NCBI GenBank assembly: GCA_964437715.1
Contig: CAYTHY010000001.1
Location: forward strand, 9,474 to 41,784
Length of the DNA stretch: 32,311 bases
Direction: 5' to 3'
Source of the DNA: an uncultured Candidatus Saccharibacteria bacterium
GTDB taxonomy: Bacteria > Patescibacteriota > Minisyncoccia > Phycocordibacterales > UBA9973
Made by a program: the position numbers and the translations under genes
Shown: one piece after another, positions 2,315-32,012 of the stretch
Layout of the letters: each line of letters starts with the position of its first letter
How positions within the stretch are numbered: the first letter of the stretch is position 1
Notes under the pieces: model-generated
The model's database searches: none
The model's input: the letters and a program-made list of their open reading frames with translations, nothing else
Told to the model about the DNA's origin: nothing

Positions 2315-3508
2315 ATGGGATTTTTATTTGAAGGAAAAAAGAATAAGGAAACTGTCGCTATTTTTGATATTGGTTCTGGTAGTGTTGGAGGAGCTGTTAT
2401 TAACATTCCCAATGATACTAAAGAAACACCATGTATTATAGATTCTGTCCGTACTGAAATAAACTATAATGAAAATAAAATTGACTCAAGCTTATTCACA
2501 AGGAGTATGCTTAGAGCTCTTAGCTTAACAATTAATAAACTTTTTAAAATTAATTCTACTCTTCCAGATAGAATAGTTTGTGTAGTTACTTCACCTTGGT
2601 ATTCATCAGAAACTAAAATTGTAAAAATAAAAAAAGAGAGTTCTTTTATTTTTACTAAGAAAATAGCAGAAGATTTAATTAAAAAAGAAATAAAAAAGAC
2701 TATGATAACTCATAGTAAAAAAAATAATACCATTTACAATAAACTTGAAATTATAGAACATTTTATTATGAAAGTGTCTCTCAATGGATATCAAGTAGAA
2801 TCTCCATTAGGTTCAAAAACGAAATCAGTTGAAATTAGTATGATTACGTCTTTTTCTCAGAAATTTTTCCTAGATAAAATACGTAAAGTCATTTTAAAAA
2901 CATACCATGAAATACCAATCTCTTTTTCTTCTTTTATCTCTGATTATTATTTCTCTATTCGTAATAAATATATTAGTCCTGATTCCTATCTATTACTTAA
3001 TATTAGAGGAGAAATTACTGAAGTTGGAATTGTCTCTAAGGGAACTCTAAAAGATACTTTATCTTTTCCTTTTGGTAAAAAAACATTTTTAAAATATATT
3101 AGCAGCAAGTTAGAAATAGAATTGCGAGACGCTAAAGAACTCTTTAATTTATATAGTTCGGGTTATTTATCAAAAGAAAAAGAAGAAGAAGTAGCTCCTC
3201 TTTTTAAATCAGCAGAATCTTCCTGGAGTGAATCTTTTCGAGAATGTATTAAAAATCTTCCTTACACTTTAGCTCTTCCAGATACAATATTTTTAATTGC
3301 TAACTTCGATATAATAGATTATTTTTCTAGTGTTATTAATAATGAAAAGTTTATTCAAGCGATGACTATTAAACATAAATGTAAAGTTATTCCAATAAGA
3401 GGGTCTGAATTTTTAAATATTTGTAAATATAACGAAAAGATAATTCACGACCCATTTTTAATGATTGAATCGGTCTCAATAATCAAAAAAAATAAACAAT
3501 ATGAATAG
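2315..3508 (+). CDS. divergent actin-fold (ASKHA; FtsA/PilM-like) protein
   Basis: Phosphate-1-like motif VAIFDIGSGSVGGAV near the N-terminus. A degenerate second motif LLLNIRGEITEVGIV is followed by FPFGKKTF. No closer family is recognisable by eye. Confidence 0.45.
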   Translation: MGFLFEGKKNKETVAIFDIGSGSVGGAVINIPNDTKETPCIIDSVRTEINYNENKIDSSLFTRSMLRALSLTINKLFKINSTLPDRIVCVVTSPWYSSETKIVKIKKESSFIFTKKIAEDLIKKEIKKTMITHSKKNNTIYNKLEIIEHFIMKVSLNGYQVESPLGSKTKSVEISMITSFSQKFFLDKIRKVILKTYHEIPISFSSFISDYYFSIRNKYISPDSYLLLNIRGEITEVGIVSKGTLKDTLSFPFGKKTFLKYISSKLEIELRDAKELFNLYSSGYLSKEKEEEVAPLFKSAESSWSESFRECIKNLPYTLALPDTIFLIANFDIIDYFSSVINNEKFIQAMTIKHKCKVIPIRGSEFLNICKYNEKIIHDPFLMIESVSIIKKNKQYE

Positions 3509-4793
3509 AAAAATAATTGAAGATATAAAAGTTAAGAAAAGAATTAAACTCGATTATCAACATTCTGATAGTATTGTTGTTAAAAGAGTAACCAAGAGAA
3601 AAAAAACTACAACTAGAAAAATATCAAGAAATCCTAAATTAATAAATAAGAAAAAAAATTTTAGTATTTATATTCTTATTTTGTTTTTTTTATCTATTCT
3701 AATTGGAGTAGGTTTCTGGGGTTCTATCTTTTTTAGAAATACCAATATTAATATAGTCAAAAAACAGCAATCTTTTTTCTTGAATAAAAAGTTATTTAAA
3801 GCTTCTAAAAATTTAAAAGCTGAAATTCCTTTTGAGGTGATGATCGTAGCTGGTAATAAGTCAGAGAAGATATCTCTTTCAGAGTCAAAAAAAATTTCAC
3901 AGAAAGCTAGGGGAAAAATTATTATTTACAATAAAAACAGCAAGAAAAAAGAATTCTTACCGGCTGATACTTATTTATCTGATGAAAATGGTAAAGTTTA
4001 TTTAACGGATGAATCTGTTCACATACCTGGTTTTACTTTAATTAAAAATAAAATTATTCCAGGTAAAATAACTGTTAATATTACTTCATTTTTACCTGGT
4101 AAGGTTTACAATGGAGATCCTACTGATTTTTATATTAATGCTTTCAGGGGGACGAGTAAGTATAAAAAAATTTATGGTAAAGCAAAGACTGCTCTTGTTG
4201 GAGGTGCTCAAGGTTTATATTATTCATTAAGTAAAAACGATGAGGGAAAATTAAATAACAATAGTATTTTAAAAGATCAACTTACCAAAAAAGCAAGTTT
4301 ACTTATTCCTAAAGATTATATTTTTTATCCACAAGCTTCAAATTTTTCATATAAGATAGATAATAAAAATATTTTATCAATTACGCCGACTGCTGATGTT
4401 GCAGTTTCAGGAACCCTTTCTGTCGTTTTGTTAAGAAAATCAGAATTAAATAATGTTATTTTAAAAACCTTATTAGCAAAAACTCCAGTTAAAGAATTAA
4501 AAACTATTCAGATAACAGGACTGAATAAATTATCATTTGAATTTAGTGATAAAAACCAAGAAATTAATAAAGATTTAAAATTATTATCTTTTACTTTAAG
4601 TGGTAAATTAAATTTGACTTGGAATCCAGATTTAATTCAATTGAAGAAAAATTTATTAGGAATTTCCAAAAAAGAACTCCCTATAATTTTTAAAGACTAT
4701 GTTGGTATAAAAGATGCTAGTGTAAAAATATTTCCTCCATGGCAATTAACATTACCATTAGATCCTTCAAAAATAAAAATTAATGTTTTATAA
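3501..4793 (+). CDS. bitopic membrane protein, basic cytoplasmic N-terminus plus large extracytoplasmic domain, hypothetical
   Basis: Overlaps the upstream ORF by 8 nt. Lys/Arg-rich first 55 residues, a single TM helix (IYILILFFLSILIGVGFWGSIFF), then about 350 aa of beta-rich-looking sequence. Confidence 0.6.
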   Translation: MNRKIIEDIKVKKRIKLDYQHSDSIVVKRVTKRKKTTTRKISRNPKLINKKKNFSIYILILFFLSILIGVGFWGSIFFRNTNINIVKKQQSFFLNKKLFKASKNLKAEIPFEVMIVAGNKSEKISLSESKKISQKARGKIIIYNKNSKKKEFLPADTYLSDENGKVYLTDESVHIPGFTLIKNKIIPGKITVNITSFLPGKVYNGDPTDFYINAFRGTSKYKKIYGKAKTALVGGAQGLYYSLSKNDEGKLNNNSILKDQLTKKASLLIPKDYIFYPQASNFSYKIDNKNILSITPTADVAVSGTLSVVLLRKSELNNVILKTLLAKTPVKELKTIQITGLNKLSFEFSDKNQEINKDLKLLSFTLSGKLNLTWNPDLIQLKKNLLGISKKELPIIFKDYVGIKDASVKIFPPWQLTLPLDPSKIKINVL

Positions 4794-8579: not shown

Positions 8580-8990
8580 ATGGCAGAAAAGAAATCAAAA
8601 AAAGAATATATTAGAGCTGTTGGTCGTCGAAAAACGGCTACAGCTGTTGTTAAACTTTATAAAGCAACTAAAACTTCATATTTAATTAATGGAAAAGAAT
8701 TAGATATATATTTTCCAACAGCTGAGTTAAAGAAAATAATCACTGGAGCTTTTGAAACAGCTAATTCATCTCAAAAATTTGAAGTAGTTATAACGACAAA
8801 GGGAAGTGGAATCCATTCTCAGTCTGAAGCTTGTCGTCATGGTATTGCTAGGTGTTTAATAATTTTTGATGAAGAACTTCGTGATACCTTAAAGAAAGCT
8901 AAAATGCTTAAGCGTGATCCTCGTAGAAAAGAACGAAAAAAATTCGGACTCAAAAAAGCCCGCAAAGCCCCACAATGGAGTAAACGATAA
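8580..8990 (+). CDS. rpsI: 30S ribosomal protein S9
   Basis: AVGRRKTATAVVKL...GSGIHSQSEACRHGIARCL...RDPRRKERKKFGLKKARKAPQWSKR matches the S9 pattern. Confidence 0.93.
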   Translation: MAEKKSKKEYIRAVGRRKTATAVVKLYKATKTSYLINGKELDIYFPTAELKKIITGAFETANSSQKFEVVITTKGSGIHSQSEACRHGIARCLIIFDEELRDTLKKAKMLKRDPRRKERKKFGLKKARKAPQWSKR

Positions 8991-8998
8991 ATAAAAAA

Positions 8999-9035
8999 CC
9001 ACCCCATAGGTCTTGCTTATGGGGTGGTTTTTTAT
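8999..9035 (+). terminator. rho-independent terminator after rpsI
   Basis: CCACCCCATA (8999-9008) pairs with TATGGGGTGG (9018-9027). A run of 6 T follows at 9028-9033. Confidence 0.85.
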
Positions 9036-9036
9036 T

Positions 9037-9064
9037 TTGCAAAAAATTTTATTTTCTGTATACT
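9037..9064 (+). promoter_or_regulatory. candidate grpE promoter TTGCAA-N16-TATACT
   Basis: TTGCAA at 9037-9042 and TATACT at 9059-9064, 9 nt upstream of the grpE ATG. Confidence 0.5.
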
Positions 9065-9073
9065 GGAAAAGTT

Positions 9074-9721
9074 ATGAAAAATAAGAAAAAAGATATAGAT
9101 GCTTCTCAAAATGATTCTCTCGATTCGGAGATTATTAATGATGTTGATTTTGTTGAGAGTACAGAAGAGGGAGAAGATTTGAGTAATAAAGATAAAATAA
9201 AAAAACTTCGCAATGATTTAAAACTTTGTCGTCAAGAAAAAGAAAATTATTTAGTTGGTTGGCAAAGAGCTAAGGCTGATTATGTTAATCTTCAAAAAGA
9301 ATTAGAGCAAATTAGAAATAGTAGCTCTCTATTAGCTAAGGAAAATATGATAATTAATTTATTACCGGTCCTTGATAGTTTCAGTATGGCTTTTAATAAT
9401 AAAGATGCTTGGCAGAAAGTTGGTAAAGAATGGAGAACAGGTATTGAACATATTTATCAACAGTTTTTAAATGGTCTTTCAGCTTCTGGAATAGAGAAAA
9501 TAGAAACGATAGATGTACCATTTAATCCGCAAATTCATCATTCAATAAAAATAATAAATACAAAAGAAAAAGAAAAAGATCATACTGTCGCTGAAATTCT
9601 ACAAGTAGGATATGAAATAAAAAATCCAGCTAACTTATCAGAAATAGGGCGAGTAATTCGTCCAGCTAGTGTTAATATTTATGAATATAAACCTACCTCT
9701 AATTCTCTAAAAAAAGAGTAA
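9074..9721 (+). CDS. grpE: nucleotide exchange factor GrpE
   Basis: Acidic N-terminus, a coiled-coil segment with WQRAKADYVNLQKE, LLPVLDSF, and a C-terminal beta domain ending in RVIRPASV. Confidence 0.88.
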   Translation: MKNKKKDIDASQNDSLDSEIINDVDFVESTEEGEDLSNKDKIKKLRNDLKLCRQEKENYLVGWQRAKADYVNLQKELEQIRNSSSLLAKENMIINLLPVLDSFSMAFNNKDAWQKVGKEWRTGIEHIYQQFLNGLSASGIEKIETIDVPFNPQIHHSIKIINTKEKEKDHTVAEILQVGYEIKNPANLSEIGRVIRPASVNIYEYKPTSNSLKKE

Positions 9722-9738
9722 AATAAAATCTTACTTTT

Positions 9739-10311
9739 TTAAAGTTTTATTCCACAGATAGAAAAAAATTCTTTTTCAGTTTTTTCATCTATTTTATCTG
9801 TCACTAAAATCATCATTTCGGTAGATAAATTTAAATCTTTTTTTATATTCATAAATAAATGTTCAAAGGGGTACATTGAAATCCAAACAGAATTTTTAGC
9901 ACAAAAAAATCCAGCTTTTTTTAATAAATACCGCAAAGCTTCTCTTTCACTTTTTCTTTCTTCGGGAAGATCAAGTAAAATTACTCGCCAAAAACCATCC
10001 CATTTAGTTGAGACTAAGCTTAAATCAGATTCTAAAATTATGTTATTAAGTTTTTGTTTACCGTTTTCAGTTAAACGAAAATACCGGCTACGCTCAGAAT
10101 TAAGAGATTCAATAAGTCCACCACTAAGAAGATTATTAACAGAACGGGTAATTGCGTAATTTAATTTTTGCTTATCAACCGTATTAGCTCGATTTTTATC
10201 CTTATAATAAGTAGTATCTTTAATATCTTCTTTGATAGATTTCATTGAAATAGCCTTTTTTTGAGATATAGTTTTTAAAATAGCCTTTTGAATTGATGGT
10301 TTTTTTGTCAT
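9739..10311 (-). CDS. PaaX-like transcriptional regulator (N-terminal winged helix plus PaaX_C / Cas2-like C-terminal domain)
   Basis: The N-terminal half looks like a wHTH (ILKTISQKKAISMKSIKEDI ... LLSGGLIESLNSERSRYFRLTENGKQKL). The C-terminal half starts with the WDGxW..(I/L)..D.PE..R..R motif (WDGFWRVILLDLPEERKSEREALRYLLKKAGF) typical of PaaX C-domains. Confidence 0.65.
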   Translation of the reverse strand: MTKKPSIQKAILKTISQKKAISMKSIKEDIKDTTYYKDKNRANTVDKQKLNYAITRSVNNLLSGGLIESLNSERSRYFRLTENGKQKLNNIILESDLSLVSTKWDGFWRVILLDLPEERKSEREALRYLLKKAGFFCAKNSVWISMYPFEHLFMNIKKDLNLSTEMMILVTDKIDEKTEKEFFSICGIKL

Positions 10312-10343
10312 ATTAATTATTATAATACTATTATATGCTTTTT

Positions 10344-10373
10344 ACAAGTATTTAGTGCTCGCGAAATACTTGT
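10344..10373. promoter_or_regulatory. perfect inverted repeat ACAAGTATTT-N10-AAATACTTGT, candidate operator
   Basis: Arms at 10344-10353 and 10364-10373. The right arm overlaps the -35 of the dnaK promoter. The site is 33 nt from the divergent regulator start codon. Confidence 0.6.
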
Positions 10374-10398
10374 CAAAAATAACATATAGGTATATAAT
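10370..10398 (+). promoter_or_regulatory. dnaK promoter TTGTCA-N17-TATAAT
   Basis: TTGTCA at 10370-10375 and TATAAT at 10393-10398, exactly 17 nt apart. This implies a leader of about 95 nt for dnaK. Confidence 0.6.
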
Positions 10399-10405
10399 AA
10401 CCTTC

Positions 10406-10422
10406 AGATATTTTAAATATCT
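10406..10422. promoter_or_regulatory. palindrome AGATATTT-T-AAATATCT at the predicted dnaK transcription start
   Basis: 8-bp perfect arms at 10406-10413 and 10415-10422. Confidence 0.4.
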
Positions 10423-10457
10423 AAATAAATAATTTATTAATCATTATAATTAATTTA

Positions 10458-10489
10458 TAACTCATTGAAGAATAAATTAAAATGAGTTA
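10458..10489 (+). promoter_or_regulatory. AU-rich stem-loop just upstream of the dnaK start codon
   Basis: TAACTCATT (10458-10466) pairs with AATGAGTTA (10481-10489) around a 14-nt loop. The stem ends 8 nt before the ATG at 10498. Confidence 0.4.
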
Positions 10490-10497
10490 GAAAAAAT

Positions 10498-12405
10498 ATG
10501 TCAAAAATAATTGGAATAGATTTAGGAACAACAAATAGTGCTGTTGCTATTATAGAAGGTGGACAACCTAAAATTGTTGAAAATGTTGAAGGAGCAAGGA
10601 CTACTCCTTCTGTTGTAGCTATTACTAAAAAAGGAGATAGGATGGTAGGACTCTTAGCTAAGCGTCAGGCTGTTACTAACCCAGAGAATACCGTTTATGG
10701 TATTAAGCGTTTTATTGGTCATCTTTATAACGATCCAGAAATTCAAAAAGATGAAAAAACAATTCCATATAAAATAAGAAAAGGAGAAAATGGTGGAGTT
10801 GAAGTTAAAATGGGGGATAATTGGTTGCGTCCAGAAAAAATTTCAGCTGAAATTTTAGGTAAAATTAAAGCTGACGTTGAAACAAAGCTTGGTGAAAAAA
10901 TCACAGAAGCAGTTATCACCGTTCCAGCTTATTTCAATGATGCTCAGCGTAAAGCAACAAAAGATGCAGGAATTATTGCTGGACTTGATGTTAAGCGTAT
11001 TATTAACGAACCAACAGCGGCTGCTTTAGCTTATGGTTTTAATACTAAGAAAAATGAAAAGATAGCAGTTTATGATTTTGGTGGAGGAACTTTTGATATT
11101 TCCGTCCTTGAAGTTGGAGATGATGTTATAGAAGTTAAATCTACAGATGGAGATAGTCATATGGGTGGTGAAGATATAGACCAAAAGATTATTAAATGGA
11201 TAGCTGACGAATATAAAAAAGAATCAGGTATTGATGTAACCAAAGATGTTTTAGCTCTTCAAAGACTAAAAGAAGCAGCAGAAAAGACAAAGCACGAACT
11301 TTCAACAACAATGGAATCAGAGATTAATATTCCATTTATAACTTCAGATTCATCTGGTCCTAAACATTTATTACTTAAAATGACTCGGGCTACGTTAGAA
11401 TCATTAGCAGAAGAATATATAACTCGCTCGATTGAAATAACAGAAAGAGCTATTAAAGCTTCTCCTTTTGAAATTTCTGAAATTGATGAAGTTATTTTAG
11501 TTGGAGGACAAACAAGAATGCCTGCAATTAACGAAGCTGTAAAAAAACTATTTGGAAAAGATCCGAACCATTCTATTAATCCAGATGAAGTTGTAGCTCT
11601 AGGAGCTGCTATTCAGGCTGGAGTTCTTCAAGGTGATGTTCGTGATGTTTTACTTCTAGATGTTATTCCTCTTTCTCTTGAAATTGAAACTTTAGGAGGA
11701 GTAGCAACAAAATTAATTGAAAGAAATACAACAATTCCAAGCTCTAAATCTCAAGTATTTTCAACAGCAGCTGATAACCAGACATCGGTAGAAATACATA
11801 TTACCCAAGGAGAAAGACCCATGGCGCAAGACAATAAATCCCTAGGTAGATTTATTTTAGATAACATTCCACCATCTCCAAGAGGTATCCCTCAAATTGA
11901 GGTAACTTTTGATGTTGATGCCAATGGTATCTTAAATGTTAAAGCACAAGATAAAGCTTCTGGTAGGGAACAATCTATTAGAATAGAGGCAAGTTCTGGT
12001 CTTTCTGATCAAGATATTGAGAAAATGAAAAAAGATGCAGAAACACATACGGAAGAAGATAATAAAAAGAAAGAACTAGCAGATGTAAAAAATACAGCTG
12101 AGATGATGATATTTACTGCAGAAAAATCAGTTAAAGATTATGGTGATAAAGTTTCAGCCGAAGTTAAAACAGAAATTGAAAATAAAATATCAGAACTAAA
12201 AAAAGTTAAAGAAGAAAATAGTGTTGAAGCTATAAAAAAAGCTACAGAAGATTTATCCACAGAAATGTCTAAAATTGGTGAAACTATGGCTAAAGAAGAA
12301 AAAAAACCAGAAGAAAATAAAGAAGAAAGTAAAATACCAGAAGAACAAAATTCAGAAATAAAAAATGCAGAAGTTAATGAAACTCCTGATGAAGATAAAA
12401 AATAA
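10498..12405 (+). CDS. dnaK: molecular chaperone DnaK (Hsp70)
   Basis: [31 protein letters not shown], and a full substrate-binding domain and lid. Confidence 0.98.
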
Positions 12406-13490
12406 TGTCCAAGGATTATTACAAAGTACTAGGGATTGATAAAAATGCTTCAAAAGAACAAATTAAAAAAGCTTTTCACGTCTTGGCTCTAAAATATCAC
12501 CCGGATAAAAACAACGGAGATGATAAAAAATTTAAAGAAATAAATGAAGCTTATCAAACCCTTTCTGATGAGAAAAAAAGAGCCAATTACGATCGTTTTG
12601 GTTCGGCTGATATGAATGGTTTTTCTCAAGCAGGACAACAATCTAATTGGGGTGGTTTTGATGGTGCGCAATATGGTTTTTCTCAAGATATGGGTGGATT
12701 TGATATGGGTGATTTAGGAGATATTTTTGGTGATTTTTTTGGAGGAGCTCATAGTAGGAAGAATGCTCGTCGTGGCCGTGATATTTCTACAGAAATTAAA
12801 TTATCTTTTGAAGAATCAATATTTGGAACAACACGAAAAATTAAAATAAATAAACAATCAACCTGTAGTGTTTGCGGAGGAACTGGAGCTAAAAAAAATA
12901 CTAAAATGGAAGTTTGTAAAACCTGTAATGGACAAGGAAAAGTCCGTGAAGTTAAACGTTCTATTTTTGGTAATTTTTCAAGTGTTAAAGTATGTGGATC
13001 TTGTTATGGTTCTGGGAAAACACCATCAGAAAAATGCCCTGAATGTCGTGGAGCCGGTGTTCATAAAAAAGAGGAGGAAATTGATATTAAAATCCCAGCA
13101 GGAATAAATGAAGGAGAGATGGTTCGCTTAAATGGAATGGGAGAAGCTATATTTAGTGGAATCAGTGGAGATCTTTATATTAAAGTAAAAATAGGCAAAC
13201 ATCCAATCTACAAAAGACAAGGGCTTAATTTGACAATGGATTTGTCTATTAAATTAACAGATTCTCTTCTAGGAATGGTTTATAAATTAAAAACATTAGA
13301 AGGAAAAATAATTGAGGTTAAAATACCAGAAGGTATTAAACATAAAGATTTATTAAGAATTAAGGGTAAGGGAGTTCCATCTGGTAATAGTCGTGGTGAT
13401 ATTATTATACAAATATTAGTAGATGTACCATCAAGAATTTCTAGAAAAACAAGAAATTTAATTGAGCAATTAAAAGAAGAAGGTTTATAA
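12405..13490 (+). CDS. dnaJ: molecular chaperone DnaJ
   Basis: J domain with an HPD motif (KYHPDKN), a G/F-rich linker, and four CxxCxGxG zinc-finger repeats. The start overlaps the dnaK stop (TAATG). Confidence 0.96.
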   Translation: MSKDYYKVLGIDKNASKEQIKKAFHVLALKYHPDKNNGDDKKFKEINEAYQTLSDEKKRANYDRFGSADMNGFSQAGQQSNWGGFDGAQYGFSQDMGGFDMGDLGDIFGDFFGGAHSRKNARRGRDISTEIKLSFEESIFGTTRKIKINKQSTCSVCGGTGAKKNTKMEVCKTCNGQGKVREVKRSIFGNFSSVKVCGSCYGSGKTPSEKCPECRGAGVHKKEEEIDIKIPAGINEGEMVRLNGMGEAIFSGISGDLYIKVKIGKHPIYKRQGLNLTMDLSIKLTDSLLGMVYKLKTLEGKIIEVKIPEGIKHKDLLRIKGKGVPSGNSRGDIIIQILVDVPSRISRKTRNLIEQLKEEGL

Positions 13491-28801: not shown

Positions 28802-30082
28802 TTACAATAAATTATTATTTATTGTCTTTTCTATAAAAATTTTAGGAGACCCATAATAAAGTTTATTAAATGTCTCTATATTTTTTTTCATATTTAACAG
28901 AGATTTTGATTCTTTGGGAGGAATACTTATACCAGAAAAAGCATGACTAGTTTTACCGTCAATCATTAATTTTATATAAAAATTAAATCTAGGTAAATTA
29001 ATAAAATCTTCTACTTTCATTGGTAAAAATTCTCGTGACAATATTTCTGCATCTTCTGCTCCAACTTCAAATGAAATAATTGTTCCAACATTACCTAAAA
29101 CTGCATCTTTTATATTTTCTGGTAATTGTGCTAAATATTGGTTAGTAATATGCACACCTAATCCATATTTTCGTGACTCACTCAACATACTAATAAAGGT
29201 ATCAGTTGTAAAATTTTGGAACTCATCTACATATAGATAGAAAGGATCACGTTCAGAAGATTCTTTATTAGCTCTTTTTAATATTCCTGCTTGTAATTTA
29301 GATAATATTATTAACCCCAACATATGAGCATTTATTTCTCCAATTTTACCTTTTGATAAATTAACTAACAAAATTTTTTTATTATCCATTAAATTTTCAA
29401 AGTCAAAACTACTTTGGTGTTGTCCTATTATATTACGCATTAGAGTATTATTCATAAATTGCCCAAATTTAGACATAAAGTAATTAAGCATTTCACTTTT
29501 ATGAAAATCTGAAGTTTTAGACATTTGTTTAGTCCAAAATTCTATCACTTGTGGATCAGTAAGATGTTTTCTTTTTTCCATTTCAAAATTATGATCAATA
29601 AACAATTTTGGAATTTCTATAAGACTCCCTCCTTCTGGTCCAGCCATAACAGTAAGAGCGGCATTTCTTAACCAATGTTCAAATTGTGGACCAATAATAC
29701 CTGTCTTTTGAGGATCAAATAACTTATAAAATATTTGGATACATTCATTGACTAAAAAGTCTTTTTCAAGAGGGGAATGAGCTTCAAGTATATTAAGTCC
29801 AAATGGAAAATTTACATCACTTGGATCAAAAAGAATTACATCTTTAAATCTGTTTTCAGGAATATTTTTAAGTAACCAATCTATAGATTCTCCATGCGGA
29901 TCAATAAAACAAACACCTTTCCCATTTTCTATATCTTGTAAACACATATTTTGAAAAATAGTTGATTTACCTACTCCAGTTTTGCCAACCATATACATAT
30001 GACGCAATCTATCGTTTTCAGAATACTTAATGACAGTTGTTTTTCCGTGATATTTATTTATTCCTATAGTTATATTATTCAT
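28802..30082 (-). CDS. soluble FtsK/HerA-superfamily P-loop ATPase, VirD4/TraD (TrwB) coupling-protein-like
   Basis: Walker A MVGKTGVGKST, FIDPHGES, Walker B FYLYVDEFQNF, and SESRKYGLGVHITNQYLAQL (the RKYG..Q signature shared by HerA/TraD-type ATPases). No TM segment. Confidence 0.7.
   Translation of the reverse strand: MNNITIGINKYHGKTTVIKYSENDRLRHMYMVGKTGVGKSTIFQNMCLQDIENGKGVCFIDPHGESIDWLLKNIPENRFKDVILFDPSDVNFPFGLNILEAHSPLEKDFLVNECIQIFYKLFDPQKTGIIGPQFEHWLRNAALTVMAGPEGGSLIEIPKLFIDHNFEMEKRKHLTDPQVIEFWTKQMSKTSDFHKSEMLNYFMSKFGQFMNNTLMRNIIGQHQSSFDFENLMDNKKILLVNLSKGKIGEINAHMLGLIILSKLQAGILKRANKESSERDPFYLYVDEFQNFTTDTFISMLSESRKYGLGVHITNQYLAQLPENIKDAVLGNVGTIISFEVGAEDAEILSREFLPMKVEDFINLPRFNFYIKLMIDGKTSHAFSGISIPPKESKSLLNMKKNIETFNKLYYGSPKIFIEKTINNNLL
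28804..28832 (+). terminator. weak AT-rich hairpin plus T-rich tract, possible terminator of the plus-strand operon embedded in the 3' end of the convergent CDS
   Basis: ACAATAAAT (28804-28812) pairs with ATTTATTGT (28817-28825) around a TATT loop, followed by CTTTTCT. The stem has only one G-C pair. Confidence 0.25.
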
Positions 30083-30086
30083 AAAA

Positions 30087-30341
30087 TTATATATTATTAA
30101 TATTCAATGATTTCTTATTAAAATATTTATTATCAATAGATGTATTTGATTCATCTTCTATCTTCTCTTGAATTTTTAATTCTCGATTAATAATTTTAAG
30201 AAGGATAGCTTTTTGTTTTGTTATTTTATTTGCAATTATATTTTTTATTTCTGAATCTATATAATTTTCTATTGATAAAAGCATTTCATTTTCTATTGAA
30301 AATATTTCATCTATATTTTTTAATTTTTCATCATTGTTCAT
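30087..30341 (-). CDS. small acidic helical protein, hypothetical (84 aa)
   Basis: ORF lying 9 nt downstream of the AAA+ gene and 4 nt upstream of the VirD4-like gene. It is Glu/Asp/Ile/Asn-rich with heptad-like periodicity. Confidence 0.5.
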   Translation of the reverse strand: MNNDEKLKNIDEIFSIENEMLLSIENYIDSEIKNIIANKITKQKAILLKIINRELKIQEKIEDESNTSIDNKYFNKKSLNINNI

Positions 30342-30350
30342 AAAATTATA

Positions 30351-32012
30351 TTAATTATTCAATAAACTTTTAACTAATAACGACTCGCAAGTTTCTTCAA
30401 TAAATCTTTTAACTGGTCGCGCTCCAAACCTCGCATCAACTAGTGGTTTTATTTTTTCTTCAAGTTCTTTTGGGTTTATATCAAACGAAACATTATGTTT
30501 CGTCAATCTTTTTTCAACCTTTCTTATTTCAAGTTTAGCTATTTCTATTAGATTTGGCAATGTTAGTGGGTTAAAGATAAGAATACTATCAAAACGATTA
30601 ATAAATTCCAATCTAAATACTTTGGCTAATTCAGGAATTATTTTTTCCTGAATAAATTTTTCATCCATTATATTTTTTCCTTTATTGAATTCCTCCAGTA
30701 TTACATTTACTCCTATATTAGAAGTTGCCATTATTATGGAATTACAAGCATCCACTGTTTCGTTTTGTCCTGAAGTTAATCTTCCATCGTCTAAAACCTG
30801 AAGGAAGATATCAAAAATCTTTGAATGAGCTTTTTCAATTTCATCTAATAATATTAAACAATGTGGTTCTTCTTGTAGAGCATTAGTTAGGGCACCACCA
30901 CTTTCATAACCGCTATATCCAACAGGAGCTCCTATTAATCTTTGAACTGTGTGATCTTGCCCAAATTCAGACATATCAAATCTTATAAAACTTTCTTTTC
31001 TACCAAACATAATTTCAGAAATTAATTTAGCAGTTTCTGTTTTTCCAACTCCAGATGGCCCTAATATTAGAAATGAACCTAACGGCTTATTGGGATTTCT
31101 TATTCCTAATTTTGCTCTTTGTAAAGTTTTAATTATTTTATCAATAGCTTTATTTTGATTAATAATTTTAGAATTTAAAGTTTGATCTAAATTTTTTAAT
31201 ATTTCCATCTCATTCCCACTAAGTTGCATTTTAGGAATACCTATCTTACTAGAAACAATGTCAGAAATTATCTCATCTGTTAAAACTTTTTTATCCATAG
31301 CTTTAGTAGATACAATTCCTTCATCCATAAGGCTAATAGATGCTTGTGGTAATTTTCCCAAAGTAGGGAAGCGCTCAACATAAGAAACTATTTCCTGCAT
31401 TATTGTTGAAGGAACAATTACTTTATGATTTTTATTAAGTTGTACTAATTTACTTTCTAATATTTTAATCTGTTCAAAATTATTTTGTTTTTTTAAATTA
31501 ACTATTTCAAACATTTTTATAAAAGCTGGATACTCATGTTCTATCCAATTATATTCTTTAGGTTCCATAGTAAGAACCACTTTTATATCTGGATTTTTAA
31601 GAATATCATGATATAAACGAGCTGTATTTTGTAAAAGATTTGAGTTCCCATATACTGTTCTACCTAGATTATCTATGAATAAAACACAAGAGGGTAATTC
31701 TTTCATTATATTCTTGAATAATATTCCTTCTTCACTTCTACTATCAAAATTAAATAAATGCTCATTACCTAATTGAATAAAACTTAGATCTTTATTTTTA
31801 TCGTCTTGGACCATTTTTTTTATCCATCCATAAATAAGGCTAGTTTTTCCGGAACCGTTGGCTCCTACTAAAATAATATTATTATTAATACTTCTATTAA
31901 TAATTCTAGTTAGTCTATTAACTTCTTCTTTTCTTCCAATAATTATTGGAAATTTATTTAAAGCAATTTCTTCTCTTAAATCATTATATTCAGTTTTTCT
32001 AAAATTTTTCAT
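30351..32012 (-). CDS. Clp/Hsp100-family double-ring AAA+ ATPase lacking the N-domain and M-domain, with a degenerate D1
   Basis: D1 carries IIGRKEEVNRLTRIINR, Walker A GANGSGKT, Walker B LFIDN (Glu replaced by Asn) and LPQASISLMDEG. D2 is canonical: GPSGVGKT, GAPVGYSGY, LILLDEIEKAH, LQVLDDGRLT, ATSNIG, EFINRFD and FGARPVKR. Confidence 0.85.
   Translation of the reverse strand: MKNFRKTEYNDLREEIALNKFPIIIGRKEEVNRLTRIINRSINNNIILVGANGSGKTSLIYGWIKKMVQDDKNKDLSFIQLGNEHLFNFDSRSEEGILFKNIMKELPSCVLFIDNLGRTVYGNSNLLQNTARLYHDILKNPDIKVVLTMEPKEYNWIEHEYPAFIKMFEIVNLKKQNNFEQIKILESKLVQLNKNHKVIVPSTIMQEIVSYVERFPTLGKLPQASISLMDEGIVSTKAMDKKVLTDEIISDIVSSKIGIPKMQLSGNEMEILKNLDQTLNSKIINQNKAIDKIIKTLQRAKLGIRNPNKPLGSFLILGPSGVGKTETAKLISEIMFGRKESFIRFDMSEFGQDHTVQRLIGAPVGYSGYESGGALTNALQEEPHCLILLDEIEKAHSKIFDIFLQVLDDGRLTSGQNETVDACNSIIMATSNIGVNVILEEFNKGKNIMDEKFIQEKIIPELAKVFRLEFINRFDSILIFNPLTLPNLIEIAKLEIRKVEKRLTKHNVSFDINPKELEEKIKPLVDARFGARPVKRFIEETCESLLVKSLLNN

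Follow-up and report, generated by a model that had tools for sequence, protein, structure and literature searches.

The window analysed here is a stretch of 32,311 nucleotides (nt) from an uncultured Candidatus Saccharibacteria bacterium, placed by GTDB in the Patescibacteriota (Minisyncoccia; contig CAYTHY010000001.1), and our subject is a putative regulator of its dnaK chaperone operon. The regulator gene (9739-10311, minus strand) encodes 190 amino acids (aa): a winged helix-turn-helix (wHTH) domain (residues ~1-95) followed by a PaaX_M/Cas2-like ferredoxin-fold domain (~104-186). It is convergent with grpE (9074-9721, plus strand; Pfam GrpE, E 1.9e-29), a conserved neighbour. On its other side, an intergenic region of 186 bp separates it from the divergent dnaK (10498-12405, plus strand; Pfam HSP70, E 7e-242), whose stop codon is overlapped by the start of dnaJ (12405-13490, plus strand; Pfam DnaJ, DnaJ_CXXCXGXG and DnaJ_C). 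Together dnaK and dnaJ (10498-13490) presumably form the regulated operon. The coordinates of these open reading frames (ORFs) agree with the original prediction, made from the sequence of the window, of a divergent 190-aa ORF between grpE and dnaK-dnaJ. That prediction had also placed the gene in the hrcA slot of the locus, a description that does not stand: the gene lies between grpE and dnaK and not upstream of grpE, the canonical position of hrcA.

The intergenic region contains a 30-bp palindrome at 10344-10373, the predicted operator, ACAAGTATTT-AGTGCTCGCG-AAATACTTGT, in which AGTGCTCGCG is the central N10. It lies exactly where it had been reported and is unique in the window. The pattern ACAAGTATTT-N10-AAATACTTGT has this one match in the 32 kb even when up to three mismatches are allowed (0.02 expected; one or more matches in 2 of 100 shuffled sequences), and a weight matrix built from 77 sites returns the same single site at 8 bits or above. 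Flanked by two near-consensus promoters that point away from each other, the palindrome overlaps the -35 boxes of both, with its centre about 46.5 bp upstream of each predicted start. On the plus strand, the dnaK promoter (10370-10398) consists of TTGTCA (10370-10375, 4 bp of it within the right arm), a 17-nt spacer and TATAAT (10393-10398), with transcription predicted to start at about 10405. The promoter had been reported at this place, and with 11 of 12 consensus positions it is the best sigma-70-like match in 8900-10600. On the minus strand, the regulator promoter (10319-10347) consists of TTGTAA (10347-10342, overlapping the left arm), again a 17-nt spacer, and TATAAT (10324-10319); it matches the consensus at 10 of 12 positions and its -10 box ends 7 nt before the ATG at 10311. 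The original prediction had instead given the regulator a promoter based on TTGACA at 10376-10371. The hexamer is present, but its only -10 partner is AATACT at a spacing of 18 nt inside the palindrome, and the promoter that is conserved is TTGTAA-N17-TATAAT.

This arrangement is not peculiar to the window. Scanning a single genome for each GTDB species, we confirmed at least 324 relatives and kept 80 loci, whose titles name Paceibacteria, Paceibacterota, Nomurabacteria or Minisyncoccia, with Saccharibacteria as the label of some automated bins. The regulator gene is divergent from dnaK in 76 of these 80 loci, the other four being cut within 500 bp by a contig end, which bears out the synteny expected in related genomes. 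In most of the 80, rpsI and grpE lie on the other side of the regulator gene and dnaJ follows dnaK; linkage to dnaK is kept in every readable locus, with orthologs down to about 51% identity. Metagenomes were scanned with the pattern ACAnnnnTTTnGyGnnCrCnAAAnnnnTGT, which matches at least 119 stretches. Among the matches listed, 84 are at regulator or dnaK genes: 83 belong to orthologous loci with the block S9-grpE-(regulator, opposite strand)-dnaK-dnaJ, and the 84th lies beside a paralog in locus L193. Gene order and operator are thus kept in about 160 independent loci, and at this comparative-genomics level the proposal of a non-HrcA regulator, independent of the controlling inverted repeat of chaperone expression (CIRCE) and with a single operator over the divergent dnaK and regulator promoters, holds.

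Conservation of the operator is similarly broad and has a clear internal pattern. None of the 77 regulator-dnaK intergenic regions that could be read (76 from genome loci, one from the window) lacks the palindrome, which agrees at 13-20 of the 20 arm positions, as expected of a site conserved in relatives. Many genomes carry the full 30-bp palindrome, for example ACAAGTATTTAGCGG|TCGCTAAATACTTGT, and the family consensus is ACAAGTATTTnGyGnnCrCnAAATACTTGT. Nearly invariant are positions 1-3 (ACA), 8-10 (TTT), G12, G14, C17, C19, 21-23 (AAA) and 28-30 (TGT). Across 134 non-redundant sites, positions within the palindrome average 1.32 bits of relative entropy, against 1.13 in the CAAAA that follows, about 0.6 at the -10 box and 0.1-0.3 elsewhere. 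In relatives whose regulator is 92% and 76% identical to that of the window, the arms are unchanged and the central 10 bp and the leader drift. In a weight-matrix search over 603 kb each 8.5-kb locus had a single site and shuffled sequences had none; the sole additional site is at the dnaJ of locus L043. Within these loci the site is confined to the promoters of dnaK, dnaJ and the regulator.

The flanking promoter elements are conserved with the operator. On the dnaK side, a -10 box lies 16-18 nt past the right-arm hexamer in 119 of the 134 non-redundant loci (at 17 nt in 98); it reads TATAAT in 72 and TATACT in 29 of the 119, and the hexamer itself is TTGTCA in 87 of 134. On the regulator side, the conserved -35 box abuts or overlaps the left arm and is followed at about 17 nt by the -10 box. 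The regulator -10 box was found in 106 of the 134 loci and in 68 of these ends 5-8 nt ahead of the ATG, a spacing that implies, as far as sequence can indicate, a leaderless regulator mRNA. The distance from the operator to the regulator ATG is 29-34 nt in 90 of 134 loci; that from the operator to the dnaK ATG ranges from 26 to more than 1300 nt.

Several of these loci carry additional genes around the operator. An 88-aa ORF (MIDPQKVDFNQLPKKF...IPSPLQSSDL; a weak DUF3467 match, E 0.006) lies between operator and dnaK in L001, L005, L014, L021, L023 and L057, and would be predicted to share its regulation with dnaK. In L023, L024 and L030 this interval holds a kinase-like ORF (AAA_18) of about 172-178 aa. 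In two metagenome contigs an IS200-type (Y1_Tnp) transposase gene stands between operator and regulator gene (L082, 10165-10785; L163, 575-1288), so that the regulator is parted from its promoter region. The S9-grpE-regulator-dnaK-dnaJ block occurs twice in L124 as a perfect inverted duplication joined at dnaJ (sites at 3729-3758 and 10499-10528), which is probably an assembly artefact.

Searches for further targets covered the window and the loci around dnaK or the regulator; the groESL, clp and hsp20 promoters of these genomes lie outside that coverage. The 16-nt core TTTnGyGnnCrCnAAA has 146 matches in 1.27 Mb of regulator- or dnaK-bearing loci, for which about 0.36 would be expected by chance, estimated from base composition. 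All but three (143) are at the regulator-dnaK region; one is at dnaJ in L043 and two flank the paralog in L193. The L043 site, AATACTTTTTCGTGACCACAAAAAAGGTGT-TGAAAA-N17-TAAAAT, lies over the -35 box of an unlinked dnaJ, 1.7 kb from dnaK. Searching with the J-domain of this dnaJ returned mostly short fragments; of three contigs inspected, one has the usual linked arrangement and two come from other, higher-GC lineages without the regulator. As had been predicted, the grpE promoter of the window lacks the palindrome, by pattern and by weight matrix, and no operator-like site occurs upstream of grpE in any locus. In the loci covered, the regulon would therefore comprise dnaK(-dnaJ) and the regulator itself. 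The other 35 of the metagenome matches listed are mostly on higher-GC contigs, about half of them inside ORFs, or are beside unrelated genes (such as a LuxR-type regulator or an antitoxin-like gene). None of the 35 is beside a dnaK, dnaJ or grpE homolog and the flanking ORFs inspected are not chaperones; as candidate regulon members they were rejected.

No trace of the classical heat-shock operators was found. CIRCE (TTAGCACTC-N9-GAGTGCTAA) has no match with up to three mismatches in the window or in 200 sequences totalling 1.47 Mb. The HspR-associated inverted repeat (HAIR, CTTGAGT-N7-ACTCAAG) at up to three mismatches and the CtsR box (RGTCAAAnAnRGTCAAA) at up to two are absent from the window. 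We considered whether the palindrome might itself be a CIRCE element and rejected this: for its core, TTAGCG..CGCTAA, agreement with each CIRCE arm is limited to the outer 5 nt, and the spacing differs. A tblastn search with Bacillus subtilis HrcA, limited in sensitivity, found nothing in the 1.47 Mb of loci. Searches with groEL and groES (E. coli and B. subtilis queries) gave no match, a result of little weight as all the loci represent the same genomic neighbourhood.

The regulator protein belongs to one significant Pfam family only, PaaX_M (PF20803), at residues 102-181 (67.7 bits against a cut-off of 24; E 9.5e-19). Its N-terminal half gives winged-helix Pfam matches below threshold. An AlphaFold2 monomer model, built from an alignment of 91 orthologs and paralogs, has a predicted local distance difference test score (pLDDT) of 83. 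An earlier model from 30 close orthologs had scored 64 for the C-terminal domain, and the addition of 55 paralog sequences raised the score to 83. Its N-terminal part is a winged-helix domain of three helices, in which helix 3 spans 44-63 and the wing 67-80. After a long linker helix comes a C-terminal domain of the ferredoxin type, beta-alpha-beta-beta-alpha-beta(-alpha), with pLDDT of about 85-92. A sequence search of the PDB with the regulator found nothing significant, and by fold the model is closest to PDB entry 8a39, the PaaX of E. coli (189 columns, E 1.8e-5). RosR and MarR- and PadR-type wHTH regulators follow, as do the uncharacterised or putative regulators 3kfw and 3l09, which we take to be PaaX-like. 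The original description of a wHTH joined to a PaaX_C-like domain was thus right about the wHTH, as modelled, and wrong about its partner, which is PaaX_M. There is no Pfam match to PaaX_C in the protein, whose end at residue 190 falls where PaaX_C would begin.

Relationship to PaaX does not make the protein a PaaX. It scores 34 bits against TIGR02277, the NCBI equivalog model for PaaX, where the cut-off is 264.55. Of four PaaX features only the central PaaX_M domain is found here; PaaX_C, a score above the equivalog cut-off and association with paa genes are lacking, and no phenylacetate (paa) catabolic gene occurs in the window. Among Pfam and NCBIfam models there is no match of the regulator to HrcA or CtsR, and in Pfam none to MerR. 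The C-terminal domain carries the motif ILLDLPEERKSEREALRYLLKKAGF-C-KNSVW, which resembles the Cas2 signature (h-h-YDI...kRR..v.k.L...G.r.Q.SVF), and Cas2 models match residues 105-154 weakly, all below threshold (TIGR01573, E 0.054; PADLOC Cas2, E 0.012-0.014). Asp114, at the end of strand 1, is invariant in orthologs and paralogs.

Homologs are numerous (2011 in the database at E<=1e-3). The top 120 share 59-92% identity and are 175-222 aa long, all have PF20803, and every one that carries an organism name is from Patescibacteria. A profile search of sequences clustered at 50% identity gave 3015 clusters at E<=1e-3 and only 19 at E<=1e-30, so the dnaK-linked proteins form a tight clade within a large family of wHTH and PaaX_M proteins of about 190 aa. 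Within this clade the Cas2-like domain has a mean identity of 85% (minimum 75%) and the recognition helix and wing are 71% identical, against only 29% for residues 19-48. DnaK proteins of the same genomes are 74-88% identical to the DnaK of the window. The Cas2-like domain is thus conserved about as well as DnaK, which suggests a role beyond holding a dimer together.

Paralogs with the same wHTH and PaaX_M architecture are found in the same genomes (L180, 3512-4129; L123, 4052-4642; L193, 1118-1774; L200, 6001-6606). They are about 195-218 aa long, have 27-32% identity (31% to the clade) and carry a hydrophobic N-terminal segment; in NCBI and JGI records they often appear as 'CRISPR-associated endonuclease Cas2'. 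The one genomic context inspected holds unrelated genes such as rmuC. In their own promoter the paralogs carry a different, conserved palindrome, ATTACCnAAC...GTTnGGTAAT, and the paralog of L193 is flanked by two palindromes that share the TTTTGCGATCGCAAAA core with the dnaK operator. Judged from these sites, palindrome-mediated autoregulation looks like a property of the family.

We propose that the 190-aa protein is an autoregulated, dimeric and lineage-restricted repressor of dnaK-dnaJ acting at the shared palindrome, and put the probability of this reading at roughly 70%. The anatomy of the locus, the domain architecture, the near-universal synteny and the operator footprint are observed; binding, dimerisation, the sign of the effect and the stress signal are the steps that we infer. 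The protein would act as a homodimer, with the winged helix of each subunit contacting DNA and the Cas2-like PaaX_M domain probably forming the dimer. Dimerisation is proposed because the operator is palindromic and by analogy with PaaX and Cas2, the structural model being that of a monomer. A dimer on 10344-10373 would hinder RNA polymerase at the dnaK-dnaJ promoter, and the same bound dimer would block the regulator's own leaderless promoter, giving negative autoregulation. Release of the dimer would raise DnaK and DnaJ; the regulator would also rise and then reset the system. The likeliest signals for release would be proteotoxic or heat stress, sensed either because the regulator is itself heat-labile or because a chaperone needed for its activity is titrated away, by analogy with HspR-DnaK and HrcA-GroEL. 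Repression is favoured over activation since both promoters are near consensus and would not need an activator, and the best fold match being the repressor PaaX counts in the same direction.

Three observations weigh against this proposal. The exclusion of grpE from operator control would be unusual for a heat-shock regulon. The site at an unlinked dnaJ is a single case, and another separated dnaJ (L082) has none. The palindrome is centred some 46.5 bp upstream of both predicted starts, with an overlap of at most 4 bp per -35 box, and class II-type activators can sit at similar positions.

This last point leads directly to the idea that the protein, once on the palindrome, activates dnaK or regulates it in both directions, contacting RNA polymerase from about -46.5 in a role like that of sigma-32 in Proteobacteria. 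The position of the palindrome, with an overlap of only 1-4 bp with each -35 box, speaks for this. A mean identity of 85% in the Cas2-like domain, about as in DnaK, could likewise reflect an interaction with some conserved partner, for instance the polymerase. Activator-dependent promoters, though, usually have poor -35 boxes, and both promoters here already approach consensus (11/12 and 10/12). Of the wHTH relatives, the known ones of the PaaX type and most of the MarR/PadR type act as repressors, and a leaderless regulator that activated itself along with a chaperone would be without the homeostatic logic of HrcA, HspR and CtsR; we consider activation decidedly unlikely. A different proposal keeps the protein as a PaaX-like local regulator but has it answer a small molecule (an acyl-CoA, a nucleotide or another metabolite) and not heat or unfolded protein, with control of dnaK reflecting growth or host-association state or arising as a by-product of the shared intergenic region. 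PaaX leaves DNA on binding phenylacetyl-CoA, and homology to it, the absence of grpE from the regulon and the lack of any link to temperature in the present data all speak for such a ligand. The domain PaaX_C is absent, however, and no metabolic genes are conserved beside the regulator in the 80 genome loci. Conservation within the site is highest in the arm that covers the dnaK -35 box, a second site stands at an unlinked dnaJ, and linkage to dnaK persists in every readable locus down to about 51% identity. Ligand control of this kind seems unlikely to us.

The remaining two alternatives are weaker still. The palindrome could be the site of another factor, or merely a set of symmetric promoter elements, with the wHTH gene unrelated to it; the outer arms do hold promoter-like hexamers on both strands, such as TTGACA-N18-AATACT. 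Against this, the G/C-rich core (G12, G14, C17, C19) lies outside any promoter hexamer and yet is the most conserved block, and the site keeps its 29-34 nt from the regulator ATG while dnaK may lie anywhere between 26 and more than 1300 nt away. Site and regulator gene co-occur in all loci, and paralogs have palindromes of their own; we regard this reading as highly improbable. Lastly, the weak Cas2 matches at 105-154, the invariant Asp114 and the names given to paralogs by NCBI and JGI might suggest a CRISPR Cas2 or another Cas2-type nuclease. The Cas2-like part is fused to a wHTH, its Cas2 scores are below threshold, the conserved partner is dnaK and not cas genes, and the window contains neither a cas1 domain nor a CRISPR-like repeat array; we give this identification almost no credence.

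Returning to the autoregulated repressor, a broader and distinctly tentative extension is that Paceibacteria may have swapped the classical dnaK heat-shock regulators for a lineage-specific feedback circuit. Here the wHTH protein would use its Cas2-derived domain as the sensor, whether as a client or co-repressor partner of DnaK/DnaJ or as an intrinsic thermosensor, and chaperone demand would directly set the occupancy of the one palindrome shared by dnaK-dnaJ and the leaderless regulator gene. Should hrcA and CIRCE at groESL be encoded elsewhere in these genomes, the result at dnaK would stand, with the protein as a second regulator and not a replacement.

The 5' leader of dnaK, about 93 nt as read from the sequence (10405-10497, plus strand), has features of its own. 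A palindrome, AGATATTT-T-AAATATCT, lies at the predicted transcription start (10406-10422); its arms are kept and its loop changed in L204 and L205 (regulator 92% identical), and it is lost in L206 (76%). Such an element might fold into a hairpin at the 5' end of the mRNA or serve as a second site for a protein. Just 5' of the dnaK ribosome-binding region is a hairpin, AACTCATT / AATGAGTT (10459-10488), for which L204 and L205 have ACTCAC / GTGAGT, a single compensatory change; its minimum free energy z-score is only -1.0. Six other loci (L027, L022, L054, L034, L016 and L010) have a different, CTAG-rich hairpin at the same place, TTTCTAGTCACTAGAAACTA...CTAGAACCTA, with z-scores down to -7. 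Rfam detects no known RNA family in the window, the dnaK leader included. A hairpin before the ribosome-binding site might act as an RNA thermometer or contribute to stability, and the leader may, with some uncertainty, provide a second, post-transcriptional layer of control.

The genes of the window include ribosomal, chaperone, tRNA-synthetase and cell-wall genes. The region begins with rpsI (8580-8990, plus strand), followed by a strong intrinsic terminator (8998-9034), downstream of which lies a promoter-like site for grpE (9036-9064, plus strand; TTTGCA-N17-TATACT). Its -10 box ends only 9 nt 5' of the ATG at 9074, so grpE, like the regulator, would be nearly leaderless. The stop codons of the convergent grpE and regulator genes are separated by 17 nt (9721-9739) that contain no recognisable terminator, and each transcript may extend antisense into the other gene. 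After dnaJ comes cysS on the opposite strand. Further along, a gene at 30351-32012 (minus strand) encodes a 553-aa AAA+ protein with AAA_2 and ClpB_D2-small domains, far shorter than a typical ClpB or ClpC. Only 8 nt separate the start of this Clp-like gene from the preceding ORF, which continues past the edge of the window; its promoter is for that reason not visible, and it was rejected as a negative control for the operator. Four ORFs of 397, 430, 426 and 84 aa (within 2315-4793 and 28802-30341) have no Pfam match at E<=1e-5.

The regulator-operator pair at the Paceibacteria dnaK operon is real, strongly conserved and apparently undescribed. Our literature search, which had most subscription journals outside its reach, found nothing linking a PaaX-like or Cas2-like protein to dnaK, and nothing on heat-shock regulators in Parcubacteria, Paceibacteria or Patescibacteria. 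Patescibacteria (the candidate phyla radiation) make up a large share of bacterial diversity, and we found almost nothing published on their gene regulation. The locus offers a concrete set of regulator, operator and target in ultra-small organisms that cannot be grown, and one that is testable with recombinant protein and a 60-bp probe. It would also provide a well-supported case of a leaderless regulator mRNA for this class. Database names would be corrected, as orthologs are at present called 'PaaX' or 'hypothetical protein' and paralogs 'CRISPR-associated endonuclease Cas2'. If the proposed repression is true, an independently evolved family joins the short list of chaperone-operon repressors (HrcA, HspR, CtsR, RheA). 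If the feedback circuit is also true, this would be the first assignment of a transcription factor, operator and regulon in a large class that is still uncultured, and the Cas2 fold would gain a new use.

Comparison with known systems places the predicted repressor among several partial likenesses. It resembles HrcA/CIRCE, found in Bacillota and many other phyla, in that a dedicated repressor (here predicted to repress) in the grpE-dnaK-dnaJ neighbourhood is paired with a long, perfect inverted repeat at the chaperone promoter and has a very small target set. The folds, though, are unrelated, and the operator is a continuous 30-bp palindrome where CIRCE is TTAGCACTC-N9-GAGTGCTAA. The regulator gene is divergent from dnaK whereas hrcA is first in its operon, and grpE is not controlled here. 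HrcA activity depends on GroEL. With CtsR, the wHTH-type dimeric repressor of class III heat-shock genes (stress and chaperone/protease genes) of Bacillota, the protein would share the dimeric mode of repression by a wHTH, and it shares an operator that overlaps promoter elements. The CtsR box, in contrast, is a direct heptad repeat, CtsR targets clp genes, and the two proteins have no sequence similarity; CtsR is intrinsically heat-sensitive. PaaX, the repressor of the phenylacetate catabolon, has the same N-terminal wHTH followed by a central Cas2-like PaaX_M domain. It is, however, about 305 aa long; the regulator has 190 aa, lacks PaaX_C and paa genes nearby, and differs in operator and targets. 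HspR with its HAIR element is likewise an autoregulated repressor tied to the dnaK operon through an inverted repeat overlapping the promoter, features predicted from sequence for the present regulator as well. HspR (Actinomycetota, Helicobacter, Deinococcus) belongs to the MerR family and is co-transcribed downstream of dnaJ, whereas the regulator described here is divergent, leaderless and built from a wHTH and a Cas2-like domain. DnaK acts as the co-repressor of HspR, and this offers the most attractive analogy for a feedback signal in the Paceibacteria.

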